Assembly (NCBI GenBank): GCA_000004985.1
Contig: GG738858.1
DNA: 64,000 bases
Direction: 5' to 3' (one strand)
From: Naegleria gruberi
Taxonomy: Eukaryota
Shown: piece after piece, positions 38,307-63,356 of the stretch
Numbering within the stretch: the first letter of the stretch is position 1
Layout of the letters: each line of letters starts with the position of its first letter
Translations under genes and position numbers: made by a program
Notes under the pieces: model-generated
Database searches by the model: none
Told to the model about the DNA's origin: nothing
What the model saw: the letters and a program-made list of their open reading frames with translations, nothing else

Positions 38307-39165
38307 AATTTTTTAAACAAAGAATAAACATTTTATTTGTATATTTACACTACATTAAATAATAAATTAATAATATTAATTAAATTAAATATTAAATTAA
38401 TAATATTAATTAAATTAAATAATAATACTAATATTAATTAATAAATTAAATATTAAATATTAAAGATAATAATTATTATTTTTTAATCTATTTTCATAAT
38501 GTAATAATTGTAATTCAAAACCAGTATTAGGTTGTACAATATTTCTTTTTTGTTTAACGAATTGTAAAGTATTAAAATAAGACCATTGATTTTTTCTCAT
38601 TAAATATGCAATTAAAATGGAAGCACTTCTACTTTTACCTTTCATACAATGTATTAAAACATTTTCATTATTATTTAAACATTTATCAATATAATTAAAT
38701 GATTCATCAAATGTATGATCTATTTGTTCATCTGACATGTCATATAAATGTAAATTTAAATATGAAAATCCTTCATTAGGATAAAATGGTTCTAATGATT
38801 TTACACAAGTTACAATATTTGTTATATTATGATTTTTTAATTCAGGTACATTCATTGCATCATTTATATCTCCTAAATATAAATTATCAGTTATTTTAGA
38901 GGCTAAAAAATTATTTGAATATGGTAAATAATATCTAACTTGTTGATGGGCTTGATAATAATATGATAATACTGATCGGAATATTGATGATTTTGTATAT
39001 TTTACATTATTATTTGTATTATTATTTGTATTGGTATTAATAGTTTGATCATCAGTTGATTGATCAGTAATAGTTGTTGTTGTTGGAGTGGTTGGAGTGG
39101 TTGGAGTATTATTTGAAGCCATTTTTTTTTTAAATGAATTTATTAATAGAAATATCTATTTATTG
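38307..39165. repeat. Tandem direct repeat, copy A (high-identity core: 3' flank + DUSP CDS + ~45 bp upstream of its ATG)
   Basis: Near-identical to 39986..40835. The AT-rich block 38327..38459 is base-for-base identical to 39999..40138. The copy is truncated on the left by the N gap. Confidence 0.9.
38460..39122 (-). CDS. Dual-specificity protein phosphatase (DUSP family), copy 1, 220 aa, single exon
   Basis: ORF with the catalytic motif VLIHCMKGKSRSASILIAYLM (HCxxGxxRS P-loop of Cys-based PTP/DUSP). The N-terminus has a Thr/Pro/Asn-rich low-complexity region. The ATG is preceded by an A10 run. Confidence 0.85.
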   Translation of the reverse strand: MASNNTPTTPTTPTTTTITDQSTDDQTINTNTNNNTNNNVKYTKSSIFRSVLSYYYQAHQQVRYYLPYSNNFLASKITDNLYLGDINDAMNVPELKNHNITNIVTCVKSLEPFYPNEGFSYLNLHLYDMSDEQIDHTFDESFNYIDKCLNNNENVLIHCMKGKSRSASILIAYLMRKNQWSYFNTLQFVKQKRNIVQPNTGFELQLLHYENRLKNNNYYL

Positions 39166-39719: not shown

Positions 39720-39769
39720 NNNNNNNNNNNNNNNNNNNNNNNNNNNNNNNNNNNNNNNNNNNNNNNNNN
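39720..39769. other. Assembly gap (50 N), plus a single ambiguous base at 39812
   Basis: N-run inside the diverged 5' flank of DUSP copy 1. Confidence 0.99.
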
Positions 39770-39985
39770 TATCAAAAGAGAAAGATTAACATGTTAGAGC
39801 TCAATATCTCTATGGCTATATNTCAGCTGTTCAATAGAGATGATATATTGTATAATGGAATCTGTTGCTACTACTACATGGTGCTCTTACTAATTTTGAA
39901 GAAGTGCATCTAATACTACTAAAACTATATTGTTGAGTTTAAAACACAAGAATATCTTTGAAAATCTAGTTGACACACTAATAAT

Positions 39986-40835
39986 AAATTTTTAAACAAA
40001 GAATAAACATTTTATTTGTATATTTACACTACATTAAATAATAAATTAATAATATTAATTAAATTAAATATTAAATTAATAATATTAATTAAATTAAATA
40101 ATAATACTAATATTAATTAATAAATTAAATATTAAATATTAAAGATAATAATTATTATTTTTTAATCTATTTTCATAATGTAATAATTGTAATTCAAAAC
40201 CAGTATTAGGTTGTACAATATTTCTTTTTTGTTTAACGAATTGTAAAGTATTAAAATAAGACCATTGATTTTTTCTCATTAAATATGCAATTAAAATGGA
40301 AGCACTTCTACTTTTACCTTTCATACAATGTATTAAAACATTTTCATTATTATTTAAACATTTATCAATATAATTAAATGATTCATCAAATGTATGATCT
40401 ATTTGTTCATCTGACATGTCATATAAATGTAAATTTAAATATGAAAATCCTTCATTAGGATAAAATGGTTCTAATGATTTTACACAAGTTACTATATTTG
40501 TTATATTATGATTTTTTAATTCAGGTACATTCATTGCATCATTTATATCTCCTAAATATAAATTATCAGTTATTTTAGAGGCTAAAAAATTATTTGAATA
40601 TGGTAAATAATATCTAACTTGTTGATGGGCTTGATAATAATATGATAATACTGATCGGAATATTGATGATTTTGTATATTTTACATTATTATTTGTATTA
40701 TTATTTGTATTGGTATTAATAGTTTCATCATCAGTTGATCGATCAGTAATAGTTATTGTTGTTGGAGTGGTTGGAGTATTATTTGAAGCCATTTTTTTTT
40801 AAATGAATTTATTAATAGAAATATCTATTTTATTG
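39986..40835. repeat. Tandem direct repeat, copy B (high-identity core)
   Basis: Same as copy A, offset by 1679 bp (CDS starts 38460 vs 40139). Diverged homology (~70%, many indels) continues at 40836..~41690 vs 39166..39719. Confidence 0.9.
40139..40792 (-). CDS. Dual-specificity protein phosphatase (DUSP family), copy 2, 217 aa
   Basis: About 97-98% identical to copy 1. It differs by a 9-nt indel in the TTPTT repeat and a few substitutions. It carries the same HCMKGKSRS active site. Confidence 0.85.
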   Translation of the reverse strand: MASNNTPTTPTTITITDRSTDDETINTNTNNNTNNNVKYTKSSIFRSVLSYYYQAHQQVRYYLPYSNNFLASKITDNLYLGDINDAMNVPELKNHNITNIVTCVKSLEPFYPNEGFSYLNLHLYDMSDEQIDHTFDESFNYIDKCLNNNENVLIHCMKGKSRSASILIAYLMRKNQWSYFNTLQFVKQKRNIVQPNTGFELQLLHYENRLKNNNYYL

Positions 40836-42460
40836 AGAAAGTACTCAAATGAAAAGTGAACAATTTTACATTATCATCACGTTTGAAATTAATTTCTCCT
40901 GAGGAAGATTTTGAAAATACTCTTGTCAGAGCGCTTTGTAATTAATTAAATTTTCAATTTTCTCCTTCACATTTTAACTGACTTGAATAATTCACTAAGC
41001 ATTCAACATTGACTCAATTTTGAGCCATTATTTTTATTTTATTGAAAGCTGAAGGTCTATTGTTAGCACTGGATTTTGTAAAAAAGAGATTCTTCTAAGG
41101 TGTGAAATTCATAGAAGAAAAGAATGTCGAATATCCCGATGTTTGATTCACCCCTATGTCTAATAATAAGCGATTGAAGGATTCGTATTTCAAGTCAATT
41201 GTTAGAGGGTTGGAGAATGTGTACGAAATTGGCATCTGCTGAGAGAAAGGACAGTTCGTTTACTCTTTTACAAGACTCCTCTGCAACAATTTGTACATTA
41301 TAGGAAGGCCTTGATTGGTGAGTATAATATACGAATATTATCAAGAAGCGAAGCAGGATCCTATTGTCAAGAGCCAACCAGAAACTGTAGTACACTCCAC
41401 TACTGCTTCTGCTTCTGCTTCAGTAGACCACGTAATATCACGAACATCTAAAACTCACCAAGTTCACTGCTACCGTTATTATTGTCAAGTATATTCACTA
41501 CTATTTTCAAACTTGTATATGAGGTGCAGTTATGAAAACGGCAACAACAAATTGAAACTAGTCTAAGTTGTGTTTTGAGGTACGCATCAGCTGGATACAT
41601 TTAGCTTGGTAATGGTTCATTGTATATTTTGATTAAGTCTATAACTGAATATTTATCCGCTGTTAAGTTTGAATAGCATAACATTTTTGCACTATGGTAA
41701 ACTTTTACGATCCGAGGTGAAACTTTAAGTTTTCTATCAGTATTTATTCTTTCCATTATATTATTTTATTTGCATTGTATATACATCTGTTATGTGTTGC
41801 TACTATTTTCTAAATTGCTAGTATACACACCGACTATCAACGAAGAACTTAATAAATGTCTAACAATACTTTATCAAGAAACTATCACATTAGAAGATCA
41901 ACAATGGAAAATGAATACGCACCTACACACATTTCTATTACTCTGTTGCCTTGTGAATAAATGTAAGTTGTTTTTGTCTCTTGCATAAATAACTATTTGA
42001 TAGGCCGCCTTGATAATTCTTTACTAAATTGTTTTTAATCATCTTTGCAAATTGGGTATGCCTTCTGATTCTCCTCCTGCCTTCATGATTAGTTCTTGGT
42101 TATTAAAATGGTTTGGAGGAAACTGGAAGAGGAGCAGAAAATCTTCCTTTAATGTTGTTCATTCGATTTGATAACTAACAATCCCAGAAGATGTACTTTG
42201 GATAAGAATAATTCATTCAATTACCTGGCGATATTGGAGAGTATGAAGATTGTGGATCGAGTGGAGGAGTCATGTTGGGAACAAACAATCCAGTCAAGAG
42301 TAATCCACTCTCCAATCTTGACATTTCACTTGTTGATAAGCAGAGACTTTTAATGCAAAAATTCAACTTGCCTTTCATTGTGAGAACAGGTTCAACATTT
42401 CAAGATATTCATAATCAAAAAGATGAGAATTTTAAAATTCAAGTTAATTTATTATTGAAT

Positions 42461-48181: not shown

Positions 48182-49230
48182 NNNNNNNNNNNNNNNNNNN
48201 NNNNNNNNNNNNNNNNNNNNNNNNNNNNNNNNNNNNNNNNNNNNNNNNNNNNNNNNNNNNNNNNNNNNNNNNNNNNNNNNNNNNNNNNNNNNNNNNNNNN
48301 NNNNNNNNNNNNNNNNNNNNNNNNNNNNNNNNNNNNNNNNNNNNNNNNNNNNNNNNNNNNNNNNNNNNNNNNNNNNNNNNNNNNNNNNNNNNNNNNNNNN
48401 NNNNNNNNNNNNNNNNNNNNNNNNNNNNNNNNNNNNNNNNNNNNNNNNNNNNNNNNNNNNNNNNNNNNNNNNNNNNNNNNNNNNNNNNNNNNNNNNNNNN
48501 NNNNNNNNNNNNNNNNNNNNNNNNNNNNNNNNNNNNNNNNNNNNNNNNNNNNNNNNNNNNNNNNNNNNNNNNNNNNNNNNNNNNNNNNNNNNNNNNNNNN
48601 NNNNNNNNNNNNNNNNNNNNNNNNNNNNNNNNNNNNNNNNNNNNNNNNNNNNNNNNNNNNNNNNNNNNNNNNNNNNNNNNNNNNNNNNNNNNNNNNNNNN
48701 NNNNNNNNNNNNNNNNNNNNNNNNNNNNNNNNNNNNNNNNNNNNNNNNNNNNNNNNNNNNNNNNNNNNNNNNNNNNNNNNNNNNNNNNNNNNNNNNNNNN
48801 NNNNNNNNNNNNNNNNNNNNNNNNNNNNNNNNNNNNNNNNNNNNNNNNNNNNNNNNNNNNNNNNNNNNNNNNNNNNNNNNNNNNNNNNNNNNNNNNNNNN
48901 NNNNNNNNNNNNNNNNNNNNNNNNNNNNNNNNNNNNNNNNNNNNNNNNNNNNNNNNNNNNNNNNNNNNNNNNNNNNNNNNNNNNNNNNNNNNNNNNNNNN
49001 NNNNNNNNNNNNNNNNNNNNNNNNNNNNNNNNNNNNNNNNNNNNNNNNNNNNNNNNNNNNNNNNNNNNNNNNNNNNNNNNNNNNNNNNNNNNNNNNNNNN
49101 NNNNNNNNNNNNNNNNNNNNNNNNNNNNNNNNNNNNNNNNNNNNNNNNNNNNNNNNNNNNNNNNNNNNNNNNNNNNNNNNNNNNNNNNNNNNNNNNNNNN
49201 NNNNNNNNNNNNNNNNNNNNNNNNNNNNNN
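48182..49230. other. Assembly gap (1049 N)
   Basis: N-run. The supplied ORFs made of X residues (47993..49309, 48175..49236, 48179..49246) are artefacts of this gap. Confidence 0.99.
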
Positions 49231-49346
49231 TTGCAATATATTCCAAAAAATTAATAAAAATATTTTTTATTTTAATAATATATATAAAAATGGATACAAA
49301 ATTAAATAGTAAATACTACATTAAATTAATAATTATATCATTTAAA

Positions 49347-50265
49347 TTACTTCTTCTTCTTCTTCTTTGCAGCAAGAGCAGCAGCAGCACCACTAACACC
49401 ACTTCCACTTCCAACACCACGTACTTGTTCAGGAGTTAATAAGGTTTTTTGTCCCTTTTTGTGAAGAACTGATTTTTGAGCTTCAACATCTGATGAACCT
49501 TGATGTCCAAATCCCATCAAATTACCTGAATGTTTCTTCTTTGTTTCCCATCTTGATTTAAATGTTTCACTTTGTTCATTTAACATACTATGAATTGGAA
49601 GTTTGTTTCTTCTCTTCTTTCTTTGTTTCTTCTTTTCTTCTCTATTCAATGCATCAGCTTGTCTATTACCACCACCCATTGTTGTTGATGATGATGTCTT
49701 GTTAGATGATGATGATGAATTAATAGATTGAATATCAATTTTACTAATAGAAAGTGTAGAAGTATTAGAAGAAGAAGTAATATTAGATGAAGAAGTAATA
49801 TTTGAAATAATTGATGAAGTCTTTTCAATTTCATCAATATTCTTCTTAATGGATGTAGAAGATGTGAAGATTGTAAATCTTTACAATATTTCTCAGCAGA
49901 ATCAATATCATAAAAAGACATGGCTTCAATTAAACCAGCAGTGTGAAGTGAAACATTTTTAGAATCTAATTTAATTAACATTTCAAAAGTAGATGCAGCT
50001 TGTTCATATTTTTTAAATTGTAATTGTAATTTAGCTAATTCATTTGCCATTTCAATTAAATCTTCCTTTTTAGATGAAGATGATAATTTTTTAATGACTT
50101 GTTGTAACATTTCCAATGCAGAATTCATATCATCAATTTTCATATAAAGTGCAATAATTAAACTTTGAATTGATTTTTCATTAATTAATTTAGATTCTTT
50201 TAATAATTCAATACATTCTTTATATTTACCTTGTTGTAAATATAATTGTACAAGTACTAATTCTA

Positions 50266-50296
<31 letters not shown>

Positions 50297-51878
50297 GTAT
50301 TATTATTAGTATTACTAGTATTAGTATTATTATTATTATTGTTAATATTTTTAATATAATTTTTTAATAATTGAATAGATTGATCAAATTTCTTTTGTTT
50401 AAAATATAAATGTGATAAAATTAAAGTTGGAATTTCTGAATTATTATACTAAATAAATTAAATAATTCATTTTGAATAATTTTTTCACATTCATCAAATT
50501 TACCTAAATGTAATTGTAATAAACAATTATTTAAAGTAACACCTCTAATTTGTTCAGTTGTTAATTTACCTTGTAATTTATCTTGATAAGCATGTTTTAA
50601 TTTCTTTTGAGCTTCCAAATCAAAATGTGTTGTATTACCATTATTAGAATTACTATTATTAGTAGTTACATCTAAAATAGCAACAAGATTATTAGCAGCA
50701 ACTGCACCTGCAACTGTATCTTTAGATTGTGTAAAAACTTGTTCAAATAATTTTTTAGAAACATCAACTTGTCCATTTAAATATTTAACATAAGCTAATT
50801 GTACTAAAATGGAAGAAATTTCATTTGTATCTTCAATTTTACATAATTTTTGTGCAAATTCTAAATATTTCTCAGCTTGTTCATAATCTTTTAATCCAAT
50901 AGATNNNNNNNNNNNNNNNNNNNNNNNNNNNNNNNNNNNNNNNNNNNNNNNNNNNNNNNNNNNNNNNNNNNNNNNNNNNNNNNNNNNNNNNNNNNNNNNN
51001 NNNNNNNNNNNNNNNNNNNNNNNNNNNNNNNNNNNNNNNNNNNNNNNNNNNNNNNNNNNNNNNNNNNNNNNNNNNNNNNNNNNNNNNNNNNNNNNNNNNN
51101 NNNNNNNNNNNNNNNNNNNNNNNNNNNNNNNNNNNNNNNNNNNNNNNNNNNNNNNNNNNNNNNNNNNNNNNNNNNNNNNNNNNNNNNNNNNNNNNNNNNN
51201 NNNNNNNNNNNNNNNNNNNNNNNNNNNNNNNNNNNNNNNNNNNNNNNNNNNNNNNNNNNNNNNNNNNNNNNNNNNNNNNNNNNNNNNNNNNNNNNNNNNN
51301 NNNNNNNNNNNNNNNNNNNNNNNNNNNNNNNNNNNNNNNNNNNNNNNNNNNNNNNNNNNNNNNNNNNNNNNNNNNNNNNNNNNNNNNNNNNNNNNNNNNN
51401 NNNNNNNNNNNNNNNNNNNNNNNNNNNNNNGCTAATAATAATTCATTAGTATTATTTAATTCATTTCTATTAGATTGAATAATTTTCAAGGCTTCCTCTG
51501 CTTTATTTAATCTATACAAGGAATAAATCTTTTGAAAATTAGTGGATTGCAAATTTTCAATAACCTTGTTAAATTCTCCTTTTTGAATTTGATTAACAAT
51601 TTTTAATTGTTTTAATTGATTATTATTCTTATCATTGGATAATACTATTATTATTATTATATGATGAAGATGATCAAGATGGTAATGTTGATGATTAATA
51701 TGAAAGACGGAGAAGAAGATTAATACAGATAAGATTAAAATGATGATGAATATATATTCAACTACTACTAATATAACAACATACACTTTTCCAATGTAGA
51801 ATGAATTAAATCTTCATCTTCATCTTCGATGGCTTGTTTTAATTGTTGATAATTGGACAAGAGATTCTTTGGTGCCAT
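49347..51878 (-). CDS. srp72: Signal recognition particle 72 kDa subunit (SRP72), multi-segment model: exon 1 51785..51878, intron 51645..51784, exon 2 from 51644 into the gap, then 50894 down to 49347; interrupted by an N gap and three frame disruptions
   Basis: Exon 1 (MAPKNLLSNYQQLKQAIEDEDEDLIHSTLEK + GTATGT donor) was found by hand. The TPR-like blocks IYSLYRLNKAEEALKIIQS, AGAVAANNLVAIL, ELFNLFSIII, IPTLILSHLYFKQKKFDQSIQLLKNYIK and MKIDDMNSALEML...AEKYCKDL align along SRP72. The C-terminal tail KKKQRKKRRNKLP...SRWETKKKHS...KKKKKK* matches the SRP72 basic RNA-binding tail. The supplied ORFs 49347..49679, 49646..50143, 50421..50618 and 50881..51786 are fragments of this gene in different frames. 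Confidence 0.75.
50262..50345. repeat. (ATT)n/(AAT)n trinucleotide microsatellite inside the SRP72 coding region (poly-Asn tract)
   Basis: A perfect (att)9 at 50267..50293 flanked by imperfect att/agt repeats. The reading frame changes across it. Confidence 0.85.
50895..51430. other. Assembly gap (536 N) inside the SRP72 gene
   Basis: N-run. Confidence 0.99.
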
Positions 51879-52521: not shown

Positions 52522-53481
52522 ATGACTGACGACGATTCACAAGAAGAAGGAAATTACGATCAAATTAAATGTGTTGTTGTAGGTGATGGTGCTGTTGGTA
52601 AAACATGTAGGTTTTAAAATTCCCGCGCTTTTAATCATCTTTTTAAACTTTGTAAAATAATAATAATAATAATTACTGATAGGTTTATTATTATCATATA
52701 GTAATAATGAATTTCCAGATGGTATGTATTTCTATTTAATTAAGTATCATTGAATGTGATAATGATGATGATAATGATGATTATTGTTATTGTTATTAAT
52801 TAATTAATTTAGAATATATTCCAACTATTTGTGACAATTATAGTAGTAATGTTGAATATAAAGGACATACTGTATCATTGGCACTGTGGGATACAGCTGG
52901 ACAAGAAGGTATTTATTTTACAATAATTGTAATCTCTTTAACATCATTATTTTAACATGTATTAATTCATAATAATATTCATGATAACAAAATAACATAA
53001 CAAAATAATATAACATAACAACATAATAGAATATGATCAATTACGTCCATTATCATATCCAGATACAAATGTATTTTTGGTTTGTTTTTCAGTTGTCAAT
53101 CCATCATCATTAGAAAATGTTAAAAGTAAATGGGTACCTGAATTGAAACAATCATGTCCAGATACACCCATTGTTCTAGTTGGATCTAAAATTGATTTAA
53201 GAAATGATCCAGAACAAAAAAGGAAACTCCAACAAAAAGCTTCACAACCTCTAACTGAAAAAGAAGGAGAACAAATGAAAGTAGAAATTGGTGCTAATTT
53301 CTATAGAGAATGTTCAGCAAAGACAATGGAAGGACTTGCAGATGTATTCGAATGTGTCATTGAGGCACATTATCAACATTTATTATCAAAGAAGGATACT
53401 GAAAGTTCAAATAATCAAAATTCTAAATCTGGTAAAAAAGGTGGAAAAGATAAGAAAAAGAAAGATTGTTTAATCATGTAA
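52522..53481 (+). CDS. Rho-family small GTPase (Rac-like) with polybasic tail and CAAX box (CLIM), 223 aa; join(52522..52606,52683..52721,52813..52908,53030..53481)
   Basis: Exon 1 [28 protein letters not shown] (P-loop), GTAGGT donor. Exon 2 [19 protein letters not shown] donor. Exon 3 [32 protein letters not shown] (switch II DTAGQE), GTATTT donor. Exon 4 is the supplied ORF 53077..53481 (...[14 protein letters not shown]...[15 protein letters not shown]). All three introns (76, 91 and 121 nt) are AT-rich, end in AG, and keep the frame. Confidence 0.85.
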
Positions 53482-53654
53482 TATTTAATACATTTTAATA
53501 TATTTTAATATTTAAAATAATTGTTTTTTTTAGTGTTTTTAAAAATCATTGTTGTAATCCATGATGAATTAATATGAGTGAAACTTTGCCAAGTCAATGT
53601 TGATGAGTCATAAAATGTTTCATGTGAAAGCAAACTTTCAAAAAGAGAAGGAAA

Positions 53655-53670
53655 GGGGATCCTCTAGAGT
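53655..53670. other. Cloning-vector polylinker remnant (GGGGATCCTCTAGAGT = SmaI half-site + BamHI + XbaI of pUC18/19-type MCS) at a contig end
   Basis: Exact 16-nt match to the pUC multiple cloning site downstream of a blunt SmaI insertion. It sits immediately before the N gap and is GC-rich relative to its surroundings. Confidence 0.7.
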
Positions 53671-54048
53671 NNNNNNNNNNNNNNNNNNNNNNNNNNNNNN
53701 NNNNNNNNNNNNNNNNNNNNNNNNNNNNNNNNNNNNNNNNNNNNNNNNNNNNNNNNNNNNNNNNNNNNNNNNNNNNNNNNNNNNNNNNNNNNNNNNNNNN
53801 NNNNNNNNNNNNNNNNNNNNNNNNNNNNNNNNNNNNNNNNNNNNNNNNNNNNNNNNNNNNNNNNNNNNNNNNNNNNNNNNNNNNNNNNNNNNNNNNNNNN
53901 NNNNNNNNNNNNNNNNNNNNNNNNNNNNNNNNNNNNNNNNNNNNNNNNNNNNNNNNNNNNNNNNNNNNNNNNNNNNNNNNNNNNNNNNNNNNNNNNNNNN
54001 NNNNNNNNNNNNNNNNNNNNNNNNNNNNNNNNNNNNNNNNNNNNNNNN
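53671..54048. other. Assembly gap (378 N)
   Basis: N-run. The supplied ORF 53638..56127 runs through it as X residues. Confidence 0.99.
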
Positions 54049-56127
54049 TCTTTTATGATTTGATTTAAAATTTAAATTTAAAGAAAATAAATCTTCACTT
54101 TTTAAAATTTTAGAATTTCCATTTTTAATTAAAATATTTTTCATTGTTAAAGGTAAAATTAAATTTTTTAATTCATTTAAATTTAAATTTAAATTTTCTA
54201 AAATTTCAAAACATTTAATTTCCAAATTAGTATTAAATAATAATAAAATTAAACATTGATATTCATTTACATGTAAATCATATTCACTTCCAAATCTGGC
54301 AATTAATTGACATGTACCAAGTGAATGTATCCATTTTAATATTCTATTTTGAGTAATTGAATTATAAAAATTTAAAAATAAATTTAAACAATTATTAAAT
54401 TCATTTGGTAATTTTAATTTTAAATTTAATTGAATATAAATGGAAGGCCAAATTCCATTTGTTAAAATTTGTGGATTAAATTCTATTTTATTATTATCAT
54501 TAGTTATATTATTATTTCCATTTATATTATTAATTAAATAATTTTTAAATTTAAATTTTAATTCATTTGAATTATTTAAATCTTTAATCATTCCTTCTAA
54601 TTTAAAAGTAAATGAATTTCCCATTTTTAATTTTAATTTATAAATTAATTGTTTTTCCAATTCAATTTCTTGATTTTTAATTAATTTTTTACATAAAAAT
54701 CTTTTAAAAAATTCTAAAAATAAATCTTTATCATTTAAATAGGAAAATAATAATAAAATATTTTCAATATTTAAATTAAATTCAAAATATTTAACTAGAA
54801 TTTCAGGAAAATCTAAATTTTCATTTACTAAATTTGTAAATGACTGAAATAAAAATTGTTGAAAATAAAAATTATCTTTAAATTCAAATTTAATTAAATT
54901 ACTAAATTTAGTATTTAATTTTAATAAATTTGTAATATATTCATTTGAATCATTTTTAATTAATTCTTTTCCTTCTTTAATTATTACTTGTTTCATTGAA
55001 TTTGCTAATTTTGGTAATTCATTTACAATTTCAAATAATTTAAATAAGATTTTTAATTCTTTAATATTAAAATTATTAAATATTTCAATTGATTCTAATA
55101 ATAAAATTTCTAAATTATTTAAAATTAATTCTTGATTTAAATTTTTAAATAATTTTTTAATGGTTGAATTTGGAAAGAAAAAGGAATTTTTATCTTCAAA
55201 AATTAAAATATTTTCAATTTCTTTAAATAAATAATTATTTTCTAATTTCCATTTTTGATTTAATTGTTTAAAATATAAATTTGATAAATTTAAAAATTCA
55301 TTTTCAAAATCCAAGTAAATTGAATTTTCCTTATATAGATTTAATTCATTTGATAATTCAATTAAATATAAAATTCCATTTTTTAATAAATTTTCATTAA
55401 TAATTTCAAAATTTCTTTTTTTTTCATATTTTTCCAAAATTAATTTAGAAAAATTATTTTTAATTTCCAAATAAATAATTTTAAAATAATTTTCAATTGC
55501 AATTTGTTTTAAATTTGATTTTTGAAATTGTTCTATAAAAGATCTTTCAATGTAATTAAATAATTTTGTAAAATATTTAATAATAATTAAATAATCTTTC
55601 CATTTTTGTATACATTGATTTAAAAATAAATCTCCATTTAAATTTTTTAATTGATTTAAATTATTATTTAAAAATTTTATAATAATTTTTTCATATTTAA
55701 TATAAATTAATTCTTTTGAAATTTCTAAATTTAAACATAAATTATAAATGGATGAATAAATAATTAAATAGTCTTGACTTGATGAATTTAAATTTTCTAA
55801 AAATTGTAAAATTCCTTTTTTAATTATTTTCCATTGTTTTTTAAATAATTCATATTCATCATTGTTATTATTATCACTACTAGATGAATTATTTGAAATA
55901 CTATTGAAAAGTTTAATTTTCTTTTCTTGATGAATAAATTCATTACTTGTTGATTCAAAAGTTGATGATTGTAATAAATTAGAGTTGACTTGATGATGAT
56001 CGGAATGTGATGGTGATGATAAGGAACATGATGACAATGTATTATTGATAGTATCCTCATCATCATCTAAACAAGAAGATAATTGACAAGATTTTCGTTT
56101 TTTAGGAACATTTCTTCTGAAATTCAT
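54049..56127 (-). CDS. Cullin-family protein (E3 ubiquitin-ligase scaffold), N-terminal ~690 aa present; C-terminal cullin-homology/neddylation region lost in the gap
   Basis: Open frame from the ATG at 56127 (MNFRRNVPKKRK...). Cullin signature blocks: DKDLFLEFFKRFLCKKLI (cf. DKDVFE.YYK..LA.RLL), GNSFTFKLEGMIKDL (cf. CG..FTSKLEGMF.DM) and ILKWIHSLGTCQLIARFGSEYDLHVNEYQCLILLLFN (cf. L.W...LG.c.L...F......L.VS..Q..VLLLFN). Confidence 0.7.
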
Positions 56128-57155: not shown

Positions 57156-59541
57156 ATGAGTGCAAACGTTCCAAGAGAAATTCTCAAGTGGATGCAATCA
57201 TTGGACTTGTCGTATTCGATAAAGAATATGAGAAGAGATTTTTCAAATGGTTTTCTTATAGCAGAAATTATTTCTCGATATTTTTCTCAAGAGGTTGAAA
57301 TGCACAGCTTTGATATCGGTGTTGGAGTTAAGGCTAAAATGGATAATTGGCAATTATTAGAAAAATTCTTTAGAAAACATGGACTAAATATTTCAAGAAA
57401 AGTTATTGATGATTTAATTGCATGTAGACCAAATTCTCTGAATGTTGTTTTGGAAGAAGTTTATACATTTCTCACAGAAAAGAGGTAAGTTTTCAGTAAT
57501 AAGAATTTCTTGATCCGAATTTAAAACCAGTGTCAAGAAGGCTAAACCAATCAGACTTCCTACAGTTAATGTACCTAATTTTGCTAAACCAACAGTCTCT
57601 AAAACTAATAAGGATGATGGAAGAGCAGCTGTTTCAAGTTTTGTCATGTCAAAGAGAAATCAAATTTCATCAGCTAAAGGAAATTCATCTAACAATAATA
57701 CTAATAATGAAATACCTTCATTGGAAATTACATTTAGAGATAGTAAATCATCAAGTACTCAACGTTCTAAATCATCAAATCAACAACAACAAATGGCCGC
57801 CACTGCATTATTAGCAAATATTTTCATTGATATGAATGATATTATTGAGGCAGCATCATGTAATGAATCGGATATCATTTCAGAGTATAGATTGGACAGA
57901 GGAAATTTAATTGCATCATTTTTGGAGAAGATTAATTCAATTCCTGTTGAACATTCTGAAGGAATTCTTAATAGTATAAAGGAAAGGATTCCTCTCTATT
58001 CTGAAATGATGTCAGCTCAACCAAAAGATTTTTGGAAGTTTATGAACATTTTCATTCCAGCTGTAAGAAATTCATCTGCAACTGTGTTTCAAATATTGTG
58101 CTCTATTTTAATAACATTGGGTATTGAAATGGTATCGAGAGATCCTGAATCAACTTGGGAAGCTGTTGAAGATTTTGCATTGGATAAATTTGTTGAAACA
58201 ATTTCAACTCAAGCAAGTAAGAGAGAAGAAATTGTTCAAATTGTTTACAGTTTTACAACATCAGATTTCCACACCCATAAGAGAGTGATTTCAAAGTTAG
58301 TTGAAAAATGCTCTAAATACGAGTCACATTTAATAATTCATATCCTAGCTCTTTTGGTAAGACATGAGTCATCTCTTTTAACAATATATGATTCAGGAAA
58401 TGGACCAATTTTCAATGATGATCAAGTTGACTTTTTCGAAGTATACATGAATCATGCTATTAGTGGATTGAGTAATCCATCTCCAAAAGTTAGAGCTTCA
58501 AGTTTATCCATTGTTCATACATTATTATCATATGACGATATTACATTTGATAATAAGAATGAAACAAAATCTAAGAGAGATAATAGTGAAAGTGAAGTCA
58601 ACTTTTCCAATCAACCTTTATTATACATTATGGAAAATTTATGGTCCCAAAGTATTGAACCATTGGAAAATGATAATTGGTGGGAAGTAACAGCTCAATT
58701 AATTGTTTTAACCTCTAAGTGTTTGACACAAGTCAAAAAATTATACATGGTAGATAATATACAAGAGCATGAAGACATCTTGATAGCGTTCTTAGAAAGA
58801 CTGTTAGCTAGAGAATTGAGCTCAACATTGAAGAGTATCATTCTCTCATATGTTAGCTCTCATCTTAAAACATATAGTGACAGATTAACATCTGTTTACC
58901 TTGACATTCTCTTCTCTATAACAGAAGAAGAAAGAGTTGCACTTTTGGAACAACCTTCAAATCATGTTGAATTATTACAAGTTGGAAATAGTCAATACAA
59001 GTTCCCAATCATGAGTATACCATTTGAATGGGACAGTTTAACGGTTGCAAAGGTAGTTTCTGATCAAGTTGTAAATCTAGATCACTTGGAAGTTGAACAT
59101 TACGATGTATTGAATGCTTGTATATCTATAGCACAATTAGATCAACCTGAAGATGATAAGACATTTAAGGATTCATGTCCATCTGAATGGTTGGAGATTT
59201 ATGATCGTCTTCAAAATCACTTCTTTGTTGGATTGGTTGATGAAGAATTGTGCGAGATGGCTGCACAGTTGATAGTTAAATTCTTCTCAGTTTTGAAAAA
59301 GGAAGTTGTTAAATCAATGGCTGCCCAACTTGTTAACTCTATTGAAATAATCTATGGAGGTAACCAATTTGCACACCAACAAGCCATTTTTTCTCAGTTC
59401 TTAATAGACGTCTACTCTTTGGGAAGTCCATTCAGTCAACCATTAATGAAGCTTGCCAGTTCACTCATGGAACAATCGCATCTAACAACAAATCAACATT
59501 TAGGAAAGTTTGTATCCTTTGTGAGGAATAACATGATGTAA
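57156..59541 (+). CDS. Protein with an N-terminal SPEF1/CLAMP-type calponin-homology-like domain (PF06294/DUF1042 type) followed by a ~630-aa helical-repeat region; exon 1 57156..57484, intron starting at the GTAAGT donor 57485, exon 2 ending 59541 (acceptor uncertain; 57531, 57555, 57624 and 57639 are in-frame candidates)
   Basis: Exon 1 EILKWMQSLDLSYSIKNMRRDFSNGFLIAEIISRYFSQEVEMHSFD...ISRKVIDDLIACRPNSLNVVLEEVYTFLTEK aligns closely with SPEF1 N-termini (RDFSDGVLVAEVIKFYFPKMVEMHNY...CAPGVVELVL). A canonical AG|GTAAGT donor follows directly. The downstream frame (supplied ORF 57646..59541) is open upstream of its Met back to 57514. This supports joining the two. Confidence 0.6.
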
Positions 59542-60643: not shown

Positions 60644-63356
60644 ATGAGTCGAGTCACACCACTATCACCCTCACAGCAGAGTCAAATAACGCCCTCAACA
60701 ACGACATTATCCTTTAAATCTTCGGATTCTAAGGGTCAACAGATGAATAATTCTGCTAGTACAATTCAAATATTAAATTCAAGACCAATATCAGCATCAG
60801 GTACGCAAAGAAGTAATTCACTTTTTGATGAAACTTACATTACTTCAAACTCTGAATTTGAAGCGGAGAGAATTGATAAACAAATGCCAGTCATGATGAG
60901 ATTAGAATCAGCAGTATTTGAGCCTAAGAAGAATACTTATGATCCAAATCAATTTTCATCAAGTACTTTAAATTTAAATTCTAAAAGTGAAACTAATCTA
61001 TCAACTATGGCTTTAAATGATCCAACTCCATCTGAAACAGGTAGCATTTATTCATTAGCTTCAAGTCCAAGAAGTTTTTATTTTAGTTTTAGATGTTCTT
61101 TATTATGTTCAATGTTTTTTTTAATTATTTCACCAATTTTATTATTATTAGCAATTTCCATAACCTTTTCTTTATTAACTTCAGTTGAAGTTGAAAAACA
61201 AGTTGTTTTATTATCTTTATATAGAGCTGAATTATATGTTTCTGATTTTTTAGATCTAGGAAGGAAATTAACAGTTTTACAAAAACAAATGATTACTGAT
61301 AATTATTATTCCAAGTTTGAAACTGATGATTATTTCAACACTTTTAATAATTACAAATCAATTTTAAAATCACTTGCTGCAGTTCACAAACATAATAAGG
61401 CTTCTTTCTTTTTATTTGATTTTACTTCTCGCAATGCTGATTACATTTATGTAAATACAAAACAAACCGAAACAAGAATTTGGAATTCCAAATTATATGA
61501 TAATCAACAAGAATATTATTACATGTCAAATATTGAATCTTTACCATATTCCAACATTACTAAATATAACTTGACGAAGGATTTAAAATTTGATGTTATT
61601 GGATATATTGAACAAGAATTTTGGAATCCGTTCGCAGAAACATATTTTAAATTATCACAATCGTATGATAAAGCTCTTGTACCAATGTCAGTACAAACAC
61701 AAGGTGCTGACAGTGTTGAAGAACGAGTTTACATTTGTTATCAGGAGAATGTCTATTCTCAAATTAATGAAACAAAATTCCTAGGCGTTACAAGTGCAAA
61801 TGTTGTGGTGAGAGAATTGGCTTCCTTTATTAAGAATTATCATGTTTCAGCAAGAGGTTTTGCACTTGTTGTAGAAATGAATTATGATCAAGAATCAAAT
61901 ACATTGAAAAAGAGAATGGTTGCCTATAAAGATTATAATCAATTGGCAAAGAAAGATCCAGAAAGTACAGGTGGTTATAAAATACCAGACGCAGAAGAAA
62001 TTGAAGATTTGTTTTTAAGATTTGTTATCACACAGATTATACCTAATAATGTTCATGATGTGAATATCAAATCAGAAGAATTGTTTAGATTCATGTATGG
62101 AGGTGAATCTTATTTAATGGCTTTTAAGATTGTTTCATCTTCAAAAGATTTAAACATGCAATGGTTGACTATTATTTGTGCTCCTGAAATTGGTATGTTT
62201 TTTTATTATCAAAAATTGAATCATATTTGAAATGTATATTGTTGAATTGTGTAATATAGATTTTATTGGTAATTTACTTTTATTAACAGGTCTTAATATT
62301 GGTGTTAGTATATTAGCATTCTGTTTTTCAATGGTATTTGTATTCTATTTTGCCTCTTCAATTTCTAAACCATTATTATATTTCTCATCTGAGAGTAAAG
62401 CCATTTCAAATCTTAAAGTACATCGTGGAGGAATTATCAAGACTAGAATTCGTGAAATTTTACTTTTATCTGAAGCTTTTGAAAAGATGAAGACAACATT
62501 GAGATCATTTATGAGATTTGTTCCTCGTCAATTAATTGTGGAAATGGTAGAAAAGGGAATTGAAATGAAATTAGGTGGTCATATTCATGAAAATATTACA
62601 ATTTTATTTTCAGATGTTGAAGACTTTACAACATGGAGTGAAAAATTAGAACCACAATTTTTAATTAGACATGTTTCTGAATATTTCCATGTCATGACAG
62701 AAGAAATTGTGAATGAAGAAGGTACACTTGATAAATATATAGGTGATGCAGTAATGGCATTCTGGGGAGCTCCTAATTTTATGTATGACACTTCAATGAG
62801 AGCTTGTAGAGCTGCTATTAAATGTCAAGAAAGAATGGACAAGTTGAGAAAAATATGGGAGAAACAAAACAAACCTTTATTTAAATGTAGAATTGGATTA
62901 CATACTGGTTCATGTATTATTGGTAATATTGGTTCTTTATGGAGATTAAATTATACTGCTTTGGGTGATTCTGTTAATTTAGCATCAAGATTGGAAGGTC
63001 AAAATAAGTTTTATGGAACTGAAATTTTAATTAGTCAAGATACTTATAAGAATGTTGCTAGTAGTTTTAATTGTAGAAGAATTGATACAGTTGGTGTAAA
63101 GGGTAAATCGGTTGGTATTACTATTTATGAATTAATTTCAAGAAAGGAAGAAACTATACCAAATCCTAAAATTGAAACACGTTTGAAATTAACTCCAATT
63201 TATGAATCTGCACTTGCTGAATATCAATTAGGAAGATTTACTGAAGCACTTAAATTGTTAATGACAAGATGTCAAGATATTGATTGTAATGACTTGGCTA
63301 CTCAAACGTTAATTGATAGATGTAAAGAATACATTCAATATCCACCATATAATTGA
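60644..63356 (+). CDS. acgA: Receptor-type class III adenylyl cyclase with extracellular sensor domain between two hydrophobic segments (ACG-like, ~870-880 aa); exon 1 60644..62192, intron from the GTATGT donor at 62193, exon 2 from 62260 or 62290 (both acceptors in frame) to 63356
   Basis: Exon 1 has a Ser/Thr-rich N-terminus, a hydrophobic segment FYFSFRCSLLCSMFFLIISPILLLLAISITFSLL, then a ~330-aa presumably extracellular domain. Exon 2 has a second hydrophobic segment LNIGVSILAFCFSMVFVFYFASS, a cyclase transducer-like linker (FVPRQLIVEMVEKG) and a complete catalytic domain with metal-binding Asp (ILFSDVEDFT, YIGDAVMAF), purine-selecting Lys (DKYIGD) and the transition-state Asn/Arg (GDSVNLASRLEG). 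Confidence 0.7.

Follow-up and report, generated by a model that had tools for sequence, protein, structure and literature searches.

The SRP72 locus of Naegleria gruberi

The window analysed here is a 64,000-nt stretch of N. gruberi contig GG738858.1, broken up by six N-runs. The open reading frame at 57646-59541 matches N. gruberi NAEGRDRAFT_65518 with 100% identity, and a cullin in the window gives a full PF00888 match. Outside the N-runs, the window gave no hits in Rfam and tRNA scans. On the minus strand lies a gene for SRP72 (Table 1). In tblastn, aa 1-41 of N. fowleri SRP72 match 51878-51780, and intron 1 corresponds in position to the first introns of the N. fowleri and N. lovaniensis genes. 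The assembly gap that interrupts exon 2 should, by alignment with the N. fowleri protein, hold ∼87 codons (N. fowleri aa 119-205) and a second intron. Downstream of this gap, the coding sequence falls into four segments, A to D, which are read in different frames. These are situated on a contig island of 1,674 bp (49231-50904) that has an assembly gap on either side.

Table 1. Features of the SRP72 locus and its flanks, with positions numbered along the window
Feature	Position	Strand	Remarks
SRP72 gene	ATG 51878, stop 49347	minus	From tblastn and translation
Exon 1	51785..51878	-	ATG 51876-51878; encodes MAPKNLLSNYQQLKQAIEDEDEDLIHSTLEK
Intron 1	51645..51784	-	140 nt, GTATGT...AATAG, phase 1; joins STLEK to LLSNDK
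Exon 2, 5′ part	51431..51644	-	N. fowleri aa 47-118; ends at assembly gap
Assembly gap within SRP72	50905..51430	.	526 N
Coding segment A	50449..50904	-	SIGLKDYEQ...QNELFNLF; frame index 1; N. fowleri aa 206-352, E 8e-60
Frame break 1	50421..50448	-	28-nt window bounded by stops in both frames
Coding segment B	50300..50420	-	IPTLILSHLYFKQKKFDQSIQLLKNYIKNI, then poly-Asn/Thr stretch; frame index 0; N. fowleri aa 352-385, E 9e-12
Frame break 2	50263..50299	-	Within (AAT)n/(ATT)n tract; bounded by stops
Coding segment C	49881..50262	-	IELVLVQLYLQQGKYKEC...AEKYCKDL; frame index 2; N. fowleri aa 401-558, E 9e-37
Frame break 3	49842..49880	-	Stop-bounded 49646-49880 narrowed by homology; ends approximate
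Coding segment D	49347..49841	-	NIDEIEKTSS...RKKRRNKLP...RWETKKK...HKKGQKT...KKKKKK; frame index 1; N. fowleri aa 571-711, E 2e-28
Open segment 1	50903->50424	-	160 codons, frame index 1
Open segment 2	50448->50266	-	61 codons, frame 0
Open segment 3	50299->49649	-	217 codons, frame 2
Open segment 4	49880->49350	-	177 codons, frame 1, then TAA 49347-49349, the end of coding segment D
Assembly gap	48182..49230	.	1,049 N; ends 116 nt downstream of SRP72 stop codon

Both N. fowleri (FDP41_004499, P0001) and N. lovaniensis (C9374_008635, P0003) have an SRP72 that, at the protein level, is colinear with that of N. gruberi throughout. BLAST identity is 49-50%, or 61% over ungapped columns, and N. 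gruberi SRP72 contains additional poly-Asn/Ser/Thr linkers relative to the other two. In N. fowleri, N. lovaniensis and a metagenome contig (L003), the homologous 600 aa are encoded in one unbroken exon, unlike the N. gruberi sequence with its internal gap and three -1 breaks. A Ras-family GTPase gene lies divergently upstream of SRP72 at two other loci (L001 and L002) as well as in the window. The N. lovaniensis orthologue of NAEGRDRAFT_65518 (C9374_008630) and SRP72 gene are on one contig, five locus tags apart. By sequence comparison, the intact genes of N. fowleri and N. lovaniensis have their single orthologue in this N. gruberi locus, which is also syntenic with them. It is apparently the only SRP72 copy in N. 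gruberi, because a search of 5.8 billion proteins found no second one.

Pfam TPR families match coding segment C. The PF17004 (SRP_TPR_like) model gives 28 bits (E 2.6e-6) with exons 1-2, where the gap cuts the domain short, against a cut-off of 35 bits; the intact N. fowleri protein itself reaches just 31 bits. Mammalian SRP72 (PDB 6frk chain r, 7obq chain z, 7nfx and 8qvw) is distant from the Naegleria proteins, and the Pfam model of the C-terminal SRP72 RNA-binding domain matches neither segment D nor even the intact Naegleria homologues. A profile made from the repaired window protein and three Naegleria-type homologues does match the mammalian chains 6frk_r and 7obq_z, with an E value of 1e-49. 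Profile positions 3-408 align to mammalian residues 124-525, and the match is continuous over all three breaks, K-x-L-P included. By alignment, the C-terminal RKKRRNKLP and RWE-KKK motifs are invariant across four Naegleria-type sequences; GHQGS-DV and HKKGQKT are also conserved in the N. gruberi protein.

Three breaks in the reading frame

Three-frame translation and a stop-codon map of the minus strand reveal four long open segments in successive frames, each of which by itself matches N. fowleri SRP72, in colinear order. The frame steps 1 to 0 to 2 to 1, i.e. by -1 each time, as would result from the loss of one base, the gain of two, or an insert whose length is 2 mod 3. The net shift is -3, and the first and last segments share a common frame. 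The in-frame segments comprise 521 codons with no stops, whereas the two off-frames of the same DNA have 32 and 101. This pattern is not due to chance. Conserved residues extend right up to every break. A first-pass annotation of the sequence had described three frame jumps in SRP72, each like one missing base, and the translation and stop map bear this out; its positions (∼49866-49880, 50265-50300 and ∼50429-50438, which are here breaks 3, 2 and 1 in gene order) agree with the windows set by stops and homology.

Homology also suggests where bases may have been lost. Break 1 most likely falls between 50437 and 50448, on the upstream side of the GAA ATT CCA codons (E-I-P); E-[LI]-P is conserved among the homologues here. 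The likeliest missing base would lie in TATAATAATTCA (50437-50448), outside the AAA run, where the first-pass annotation had placed an extra A. At break 2, the likeliest candidate is an A in ACTATAAT, where the (AAT)n run begins. At break 3, it is probably a second C next to 49873, such that TTA CAA TC becomes TTA CCA ATC. This one-base repair brings back the Pro of the conserved K-x-L-P, which is invariant in the Naegleria homologues and is also found in mammalian SRP72.

The breaks are not spread over the window: all three fall within the 1,674-bp island, and no break is seen in the ∼14.3 kb of coding sequence outside it. This break-free set consists of the cullin (2.1 kb), a cyclase, NAEGRDRAFT_65518, a Rho gene, a cyclophilin, two DSPc genes, four long open reading frames and SRP72 exons 1-2. 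Assuming an even spread, the chance of all three breaks being in the island is (1.56/15.9)^3, or ∼0.001. No second copy of the island was found elsewhere in the window.

Origin of the breaks

Very probably, faulty base calling or assembly produced the breaks and the gene itself is ordinary and intact, a technical origin being inferred from the sequence. This reading is favoured because the breaks are confined to a gap-flanked island, the orthologues are unbroken, conservation continues up to the breaks, and the gene is otherwise intact and syntenic. The N. gruberi NEG-M assembly, a whole-genome-shotgun draft to which the window belongs, was sequenced by the Sanger method (PMC9928731, Table 1). 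The island presumably was assembled from very few reads, probably with low-quality read ends, and its consensus would be short of one base (or have two extra) at three places, such that translation changes frame three times. Base calling or consensus building would be at fault, with AT-rich AAT/ATA repeats and allelic length differences possibly aggravating the problem, and the breaks would not be part of the organism's own gene. Frameshift artefacts in low-coverage Sanger drafts are likewise isolated single-base indel equivalents in conserved coding sequence and, as here, are confined to a short contig adjoining scaffold gaps. The three shifts have the same direction, which has a chance of ∼1/4 and is only weakly informative.

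The first-pass annotation also attributed the breaks to errors in a housekeeping gene and not to pseudogenization, a view that island location, unbroken orthologues, conservation and synteny all support. Its appeal to homopolymers finds no support, given Sanger chemistry and likeliest missing bases that by homology are outside long runs. None of the likely break sites is a long homopolymer, with no specific well-known error mode identified for them, which counts against the error reading.

Introns were also considered, by listing for each break all GT..AG bridges of a frame-restoring length. All bridges were rejected, either as only 14 nt long or for removing invariant residues, except a 53/59-nt pair at the (ATT)n tract. 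No bridge at any break has GT..AG ends, is within the length range of the organism's introns and also leaves the conserved residues in place. Seven real introns in the window provide the standard. These are 46-140 nt in length, their donors are GTATGT (four), GTAGGT, GTATTT and GTAAGT, and thus position +6 is T in 7/7 and +5 is G in 6/7. Also in the window, a suspected fourth break at 62230, between two cyclase open reading frames, proved to be an ordinary 67-nt GTATGT..ATATAG intron.

A mixed case, in which the (ATT)n break is a real 53-nt intron (50315-50263, GTAATA...ATATAG) and the other two breaks are errors, is improbable, although it is the alternative that fares best. The length of the candidate is 2 mod 3, as required, and its splice product is open, reading ...NNNTNT joined to KLVLVQLYL.... 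It ends in ATATAG, as does the cyclase intron, and has within it ACTAAT, a branch-site-like motif. Length is not an objection, since NAEGRDRAFT_65518, also in this window, has an annotated intron of 46 nt; the first-pass annotation, which had called the candidate borderline, was too strict in this respect. A 59-nt variant of the bridge exists there as well. However, the donor is atypical, with T at +5 and A at +6, and the A+T content is 92%, compared with 76-84% for six window introns (the 46-nt one left out). The candidate consists of the AAT codon repeat that also makes up the poly-Asn tract beside it, and this repeat keeps phase with the frame downstream. An Ile-Glu that aligns with IQ/VQ/AQ at a conserved helix start (IELVLVQLYLQQG vs IQLALAQLYLQQG) would be lost on splicing. 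None of the three relatives has an intron at this site, and an error process must be invoked in any case for breaks 1 and 3, which lie in this contig too. Introns can bridge neither break 1 nor break 3, and at break 2 the candidate is admissible by length but disfavoured.

Pseudogenization, with the assembled bases right and the three frameshifts real, is considerably less probable still. The NEG-M copy or allele would be a pseudogene, perhaps a degenerate haplotype of a heterozygous polyploid. N. gruberi has been reported as heterozygous (PMC9928731), and near-identical sequences that differ by indels are present in the window. Moreover, the damage is all in one gene, and such clustering is also a pseudogene-like pattern. 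Against this, the damage exactly matches the gap-flanked mini-contig, the locus is the syntenic orthologue, and no second SRP72 has been found to supply the function. The gene has its ATG and canonical GTATGT..AATAG intron 1; there are no in-frame stop codons or other classes of indels, and its start, splice sites and conserved motifs are all retained. Varied disabling mutations and relaxed constraint are both absent from the sequence, the sole defects being three -1 shifts, and three independent 1-nt events with no substitution damage are an unlikely form of decay. The probability of seeing no stop after 30 neutral substitutions is ∼0.13, which makes the lack of stops only moderate evidence against recent decay. 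At columns invariant in the other three sequences, N. gruberi SRP72 keeps 80.5% and the intact metagenomic homologue 86.4%; divergence is not in excess of that of the intact homologue. Judged by its sequence, the gene looks alive.

Ultra-short introns spanning the breaks can practically be dismissed. At the 5′-most break there is a GT..AG bridge of the right length class, the 14-nt GTATAATAATTCAG at 50449-50436, which would give ELFNLF joined to KIPTLILSH; as the first-pass annotation observed, an intron here must be 14 nt long, this being the only bridge that keeps the conserved residues. Such a length is far under that of the real window introns. The shortest spliceosomal introns known to us are ∼15-20 nt (some ciliates, nucleomorphs), and 14 nt is below this. 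At the 3′-most break, the 32-nt linker has no GT whatsoever, and no GT..AG bridge there keeps the conserved residues. Longer candidates remove invariant residues, e.g. GKFDECEK..Q.EL or NIDEIEKTS.

Recoding at three sites, whether by programmed -1 ribosomal frameshifting, transcriptional slippage or insertional RNA editing, has an equally negligible probability: the shifts are all -1 and sum to -3, which leaves first and last segments in one frame, but homopolymers at sites 1 and 3 are all ≤3 nt and the Naegleria orthologues do without recoding. Programmed -1 frameshifting shares just its direction with the SRP72 breaks, which differ in occurring at three sites in one gene, in unshifted orthologues, and in having no X XXY YYZ slippery heptamer in the incoming frame in 50421-50448, 50263-50299 or 49842-49880. 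We know of no insertional editing of nuclear mRNAs in Heterolobosea, nor of multiple -1 frameshift sites in one cellular housekeeping gene in this group. Should the assembled bases nevertheless be correct, for which the chance appears slim, NEG-M would have a frameshifted SRP72 (loss or allele-specific decay), or else an undescribed form of recoding or editing that works without canonical slippery sequences.

Consequences for annotation

Exact-product look-ups (with the neighbouring open reading frame, the C-terminal SRP72 open reading frame and P0004), and metagenome scans with the SRP72 protein and with the alignment, found no independent sequence of the locus. Queries taken from the 3′ part of the gene and from its 5′ part, the latter as the N-terminal 102 aa, retrieved no SRP72 protein of N. 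gruberi from the 5.8-billion-protein collection. Neighbouring NAEGRDRAFT models are present in the same collection. Two gaps and three frame errors seem to have kept SRP72 out of the N. gruberi reference proteome. Since SRP72 is apparently missing from it, proteome-based comparisons would call the gene absent in N. gruberi, but by sequence and synteny it is present. According to a pangenome study, N. gruberi lacks 599 genes that N. fowleri and N. lovaniensis have; the supplements of this study have no SRP72 entry (PMC9928731), and a literature search found no paper that mentions both N. gruberi and SRP72. The value of the finding is mainly practical, with new biology only if reads confirm the assembled bases. 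A repaired SRP72 model can follow once the locus is resequenced.

Structure and reading frames of the SRP72 gene

The window carries an SRP72 gene on the minus strand. By protein search, its nearest relatives are the SRP72 proteins of N. fowleri (P0001) and N. lovaniensis (P0003) and a metagenomic homologue (P0002), with 49–51% identity and a query coverage of 95–100%. A profile of four Naegleria-type sequences matches mammalian SRP72 structures (6frk_r, 7obq_z and others) at E 1e-49, and the N. fowleri protein is colinear with the window in tblastn. The window gene is an ordinary SRP72 orthologue.

A stop-codon map displays four long open segments, found in frames 1, 0, 2 and 1 in gene order. 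Each segment, taken singly, matches SRP72 (E 8e-60, 9e-12, 9e-37 and 2e-28). There are no stops in the 521 in-frame codons, compared with 32 and 101 in the off-frames. The map bounds the three frame switches, all of them -1, to 50421–50448, 50263–50299 and 49646–49880, and homology shrinks the 3′-most interval to ~49842–49880. The map and the per-segment matches bear out the three SRP72 frame breaks reported in the first-pass annotation, coordinates included.

Features of the window
Feature	Position	Strand	Details
N-runs	1–38306; 39720–39769; 39822; 48182–49230; 50905–51430; 53671–54048
SRP72 exon 1	51878–51785	minus	encodes MAPKNLLSNYQQLKQAIEDEDEDLIHSTLEK; N. fowleri aa 1–41 (tblastn)
SRP72 intron 1	51784–51645	minus	140 nt, GTATGT..AATAG
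SRP72 exon 2	begins 51644	minus	enters 526-N gap; N. fowleri aa 47–118 (tblastn); aa 119–205 inside gap (tblastn)
SRP72 coding sequence past gap	50904 down to TAA 49347–49349	minus	N. fowleri aa 206–352 in frame -3, 357–380 in frame -2, 401–558 in frame -1 (tblastn); 647–708 (571–711 by blastp) in frame -3
Dual-specificity phosphatases (PF00782)	38460–39122; 40139–40792	minus	either side of gap 39720–39822
Rho/Rac-family GTPase	52523–53481	plus	introns 76, 91, 121 nt
Cullin	53638–56127	minus	PF00888 complete in one 693-codon ORF
NAEGRDRAFT_65518 intron	57485–57530	plus	46 nt, GTAAGT..ACCAG; public protein mapped onto window
ORF	57646–59541		100% identity to NAEGRDRAFT_65518
Receptor-type adenylate/guanylate cyclase	60644–62192; 62260–63356		two ORFs
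Cyclase intron	62193–62259	plus	67 nt, GTATGT..ATATAG
Cyclophilin intron			135 nt

Origin of the frame breaks

The frame breaks are most likely non-biological, and we infer with considerable confidence that they are sequencing or assembly artefacts. All three are within a 1,674-bp island (49231–50904) that has a scaffold gap on either side. No frame break was found in ~14.3 kb of other coding sequence of the window, comprising the cullin (complete PF00888), cyclase, NAEGRDRAFT_65518, Rho, cyclophilin and two DSPc phosphatase genes, four long open reading frames and SRP72 exons 1–2. With an even spread, the probability that all three would fall in the island is ~0.001. The ORF identical to NAEGRDRAFT_65518 places the window in the N. 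gruberi NEG-M draft, a Sanger assembly of ~41 Mb and 33–35% G+C (PMC9928731 Table 1; PMC8296547 Table 2); the non-N sequence of the window has 25.5% G+C. In such a shotgun draft, coverage and quality would be lowest in a short, gap-flanked island.

Single-base repairs can be proposed. At the 3′-most break, a second C beside 49873 would convert KDLQ|... to KDLPIFTSS... and regain a Pro that all the Naegleria homologues share and that mammalian SRP72 also has. In the (AAT)n tract, one A in ACT-ATA-ATA would yield (AAT)10. At the 5′-most break, a conserved E-[IL]-P argues that GAA ATT CCA is already read in frame 0, and the missing base would therefore lie within TATAATAATTCA (50437–50448) instead of the AAA run to which a missing A had been assigned. 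The proposed sites include no long homopolymer, and the draft was sequenced by Sanger chemistry; thus, of the earlier reading of homopolymer/low-coverage errors, the homopolymer part is unsupported and the low-coverage part is supported. Exact-product look-ups and two metagenome scans gave no match to the locus.

Introns, pseudogene and recoding as alternatives

Seven real introns were defined in the window as a comparison set, and every GT..AG bridge of the right length class was enumerated at the breaks. A 68-nt bridge at the 5′-most break was rejected, as it would remove GKFDECEK..Q.EL, invariant in the alignment. The 32-nt linker at the 3′-most break contains no GT, and longer bridges there each lose AEKY.K.LP, NIDEIEKTS or RQ..AL. 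The (ATT)n break has a 53-nt GTAATA..ATATAG candidate and a 59-nt variant.

That the middle break is a real 53-nt intron, the other two still being errors, is unlikely. The length, previously graded borderline, is admissible, since the 46-nt intron of NAEGRDRAFT_65518 demonstrates that introns of less than 50 nt occur in N. gruberi. However, the real donors are GTATGT (four), GTAGGT, GTATTT and GTAAGT; the candidate agrees with none of these seven at +6 and with only one at +5. The candidate has an A+T content of 92% and is built from the AAT repeat that also makes up the poly-Asn codons on its flanks, a repeat that keeps phase with the frame downstream. Its removal would lose an Ile-Glu aligned to IQ/VQ/AQ at the start of a conserved helix, and the whole region is one unbroken exon in N. 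fowleri, N. lovaniensis and the metagenomic contig.

A real pseudogene allele is very improbable. The locus is a syntenic orthologue: a Ras-family GTPase is divergently upstream of SRP72 in N. fowleri, N. lovaniensis and the window, where the divergent Rho/Rac-family gene has the same arrangement, and in N. lovaniensis SRP72 and the NAEGRDRAFT_65518 orthologue are five locus tags apart. The window gene retains its start codon, the signals of intron 1 and the motifs RKKRRNKLP, RWE.KKK, GHQGS.DV and HKKGQKT. Of the columns that do not vary among the other three proteins, the window gene keeps 80.5% and the intact metagenomic homologue 86.4%. The absence of stops argues against decay moderately but not decisively; a random substitution in the coding sequence has a 6.6% chance of creating a stop, and the probability of remaining stop-free after 30 neutral substitutions is ~0.13. 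Protein searches found no second N. gruberi SRP72, and the window locus thus seems to be the sole copy of a core gene.

Micro-introns bridging the breaks can practically be dismissed, as the sole bridge sparing conserved residues at the 5′-most break is 14 nt, compared with 46–140 nt in the seven real introns. Recoding of the mRNA is equally negligible: an X XXY YYZ heptamer is absent from all three break windows read in the incoming frame, no homopolymer at the first and third breaks exceeds 3 bases, and SRP72 orthologues need no frameshift.

Assembly, annotation and neighbouring genes

The window is a badly assembled portion of the scaffold. Real sequence amounts to 23.7 kb of the 64 kb, the remainder being N; a single 38.3-kb run accounts for 60%, and the non-N contigs are 1.4 kb, 52 bp, 8.4 kb, 1.7 kb, 2.2 kb and at least 10 kb. 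Neither the 3′ nor the 5′ part of SRP72 retrieved an N. gruberi protein from protein collections in which neighbouring models are present. The gaps and frame errors seem to have left SRP72 out of the public set of N. gruberi proteins, and the gene could be scored as absent in proteome-based comparisons. A total of 599 genes are given as absent in N. gruberi (PMC9928731); SRP72 was not traceable in the supplements of that paper.

The C-terminal end of the cullin, presumably the neddylation domain, is lost in gap 53671–54048. Only ~190 nt separate this gap from the end of the Rho gene, and the gap size may therefore be underestimated. An apparent frame break between the two cyclase ORFs is an ordinary intron, just before the second transmembrane helix. 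Neither strand of the 1.6-kb region 40800–42460 contains an open reading frame >85 aa; its G+C content is ordinary (~26%), and Rfam and tRNA scans gave no match there. The two phosphatase genes share 98.1% identity across 860 nt (5 mismatches, 3 indels); they are either genuine tandem duplicates or a pair of allelic haplotypes set side by side by the assembler.
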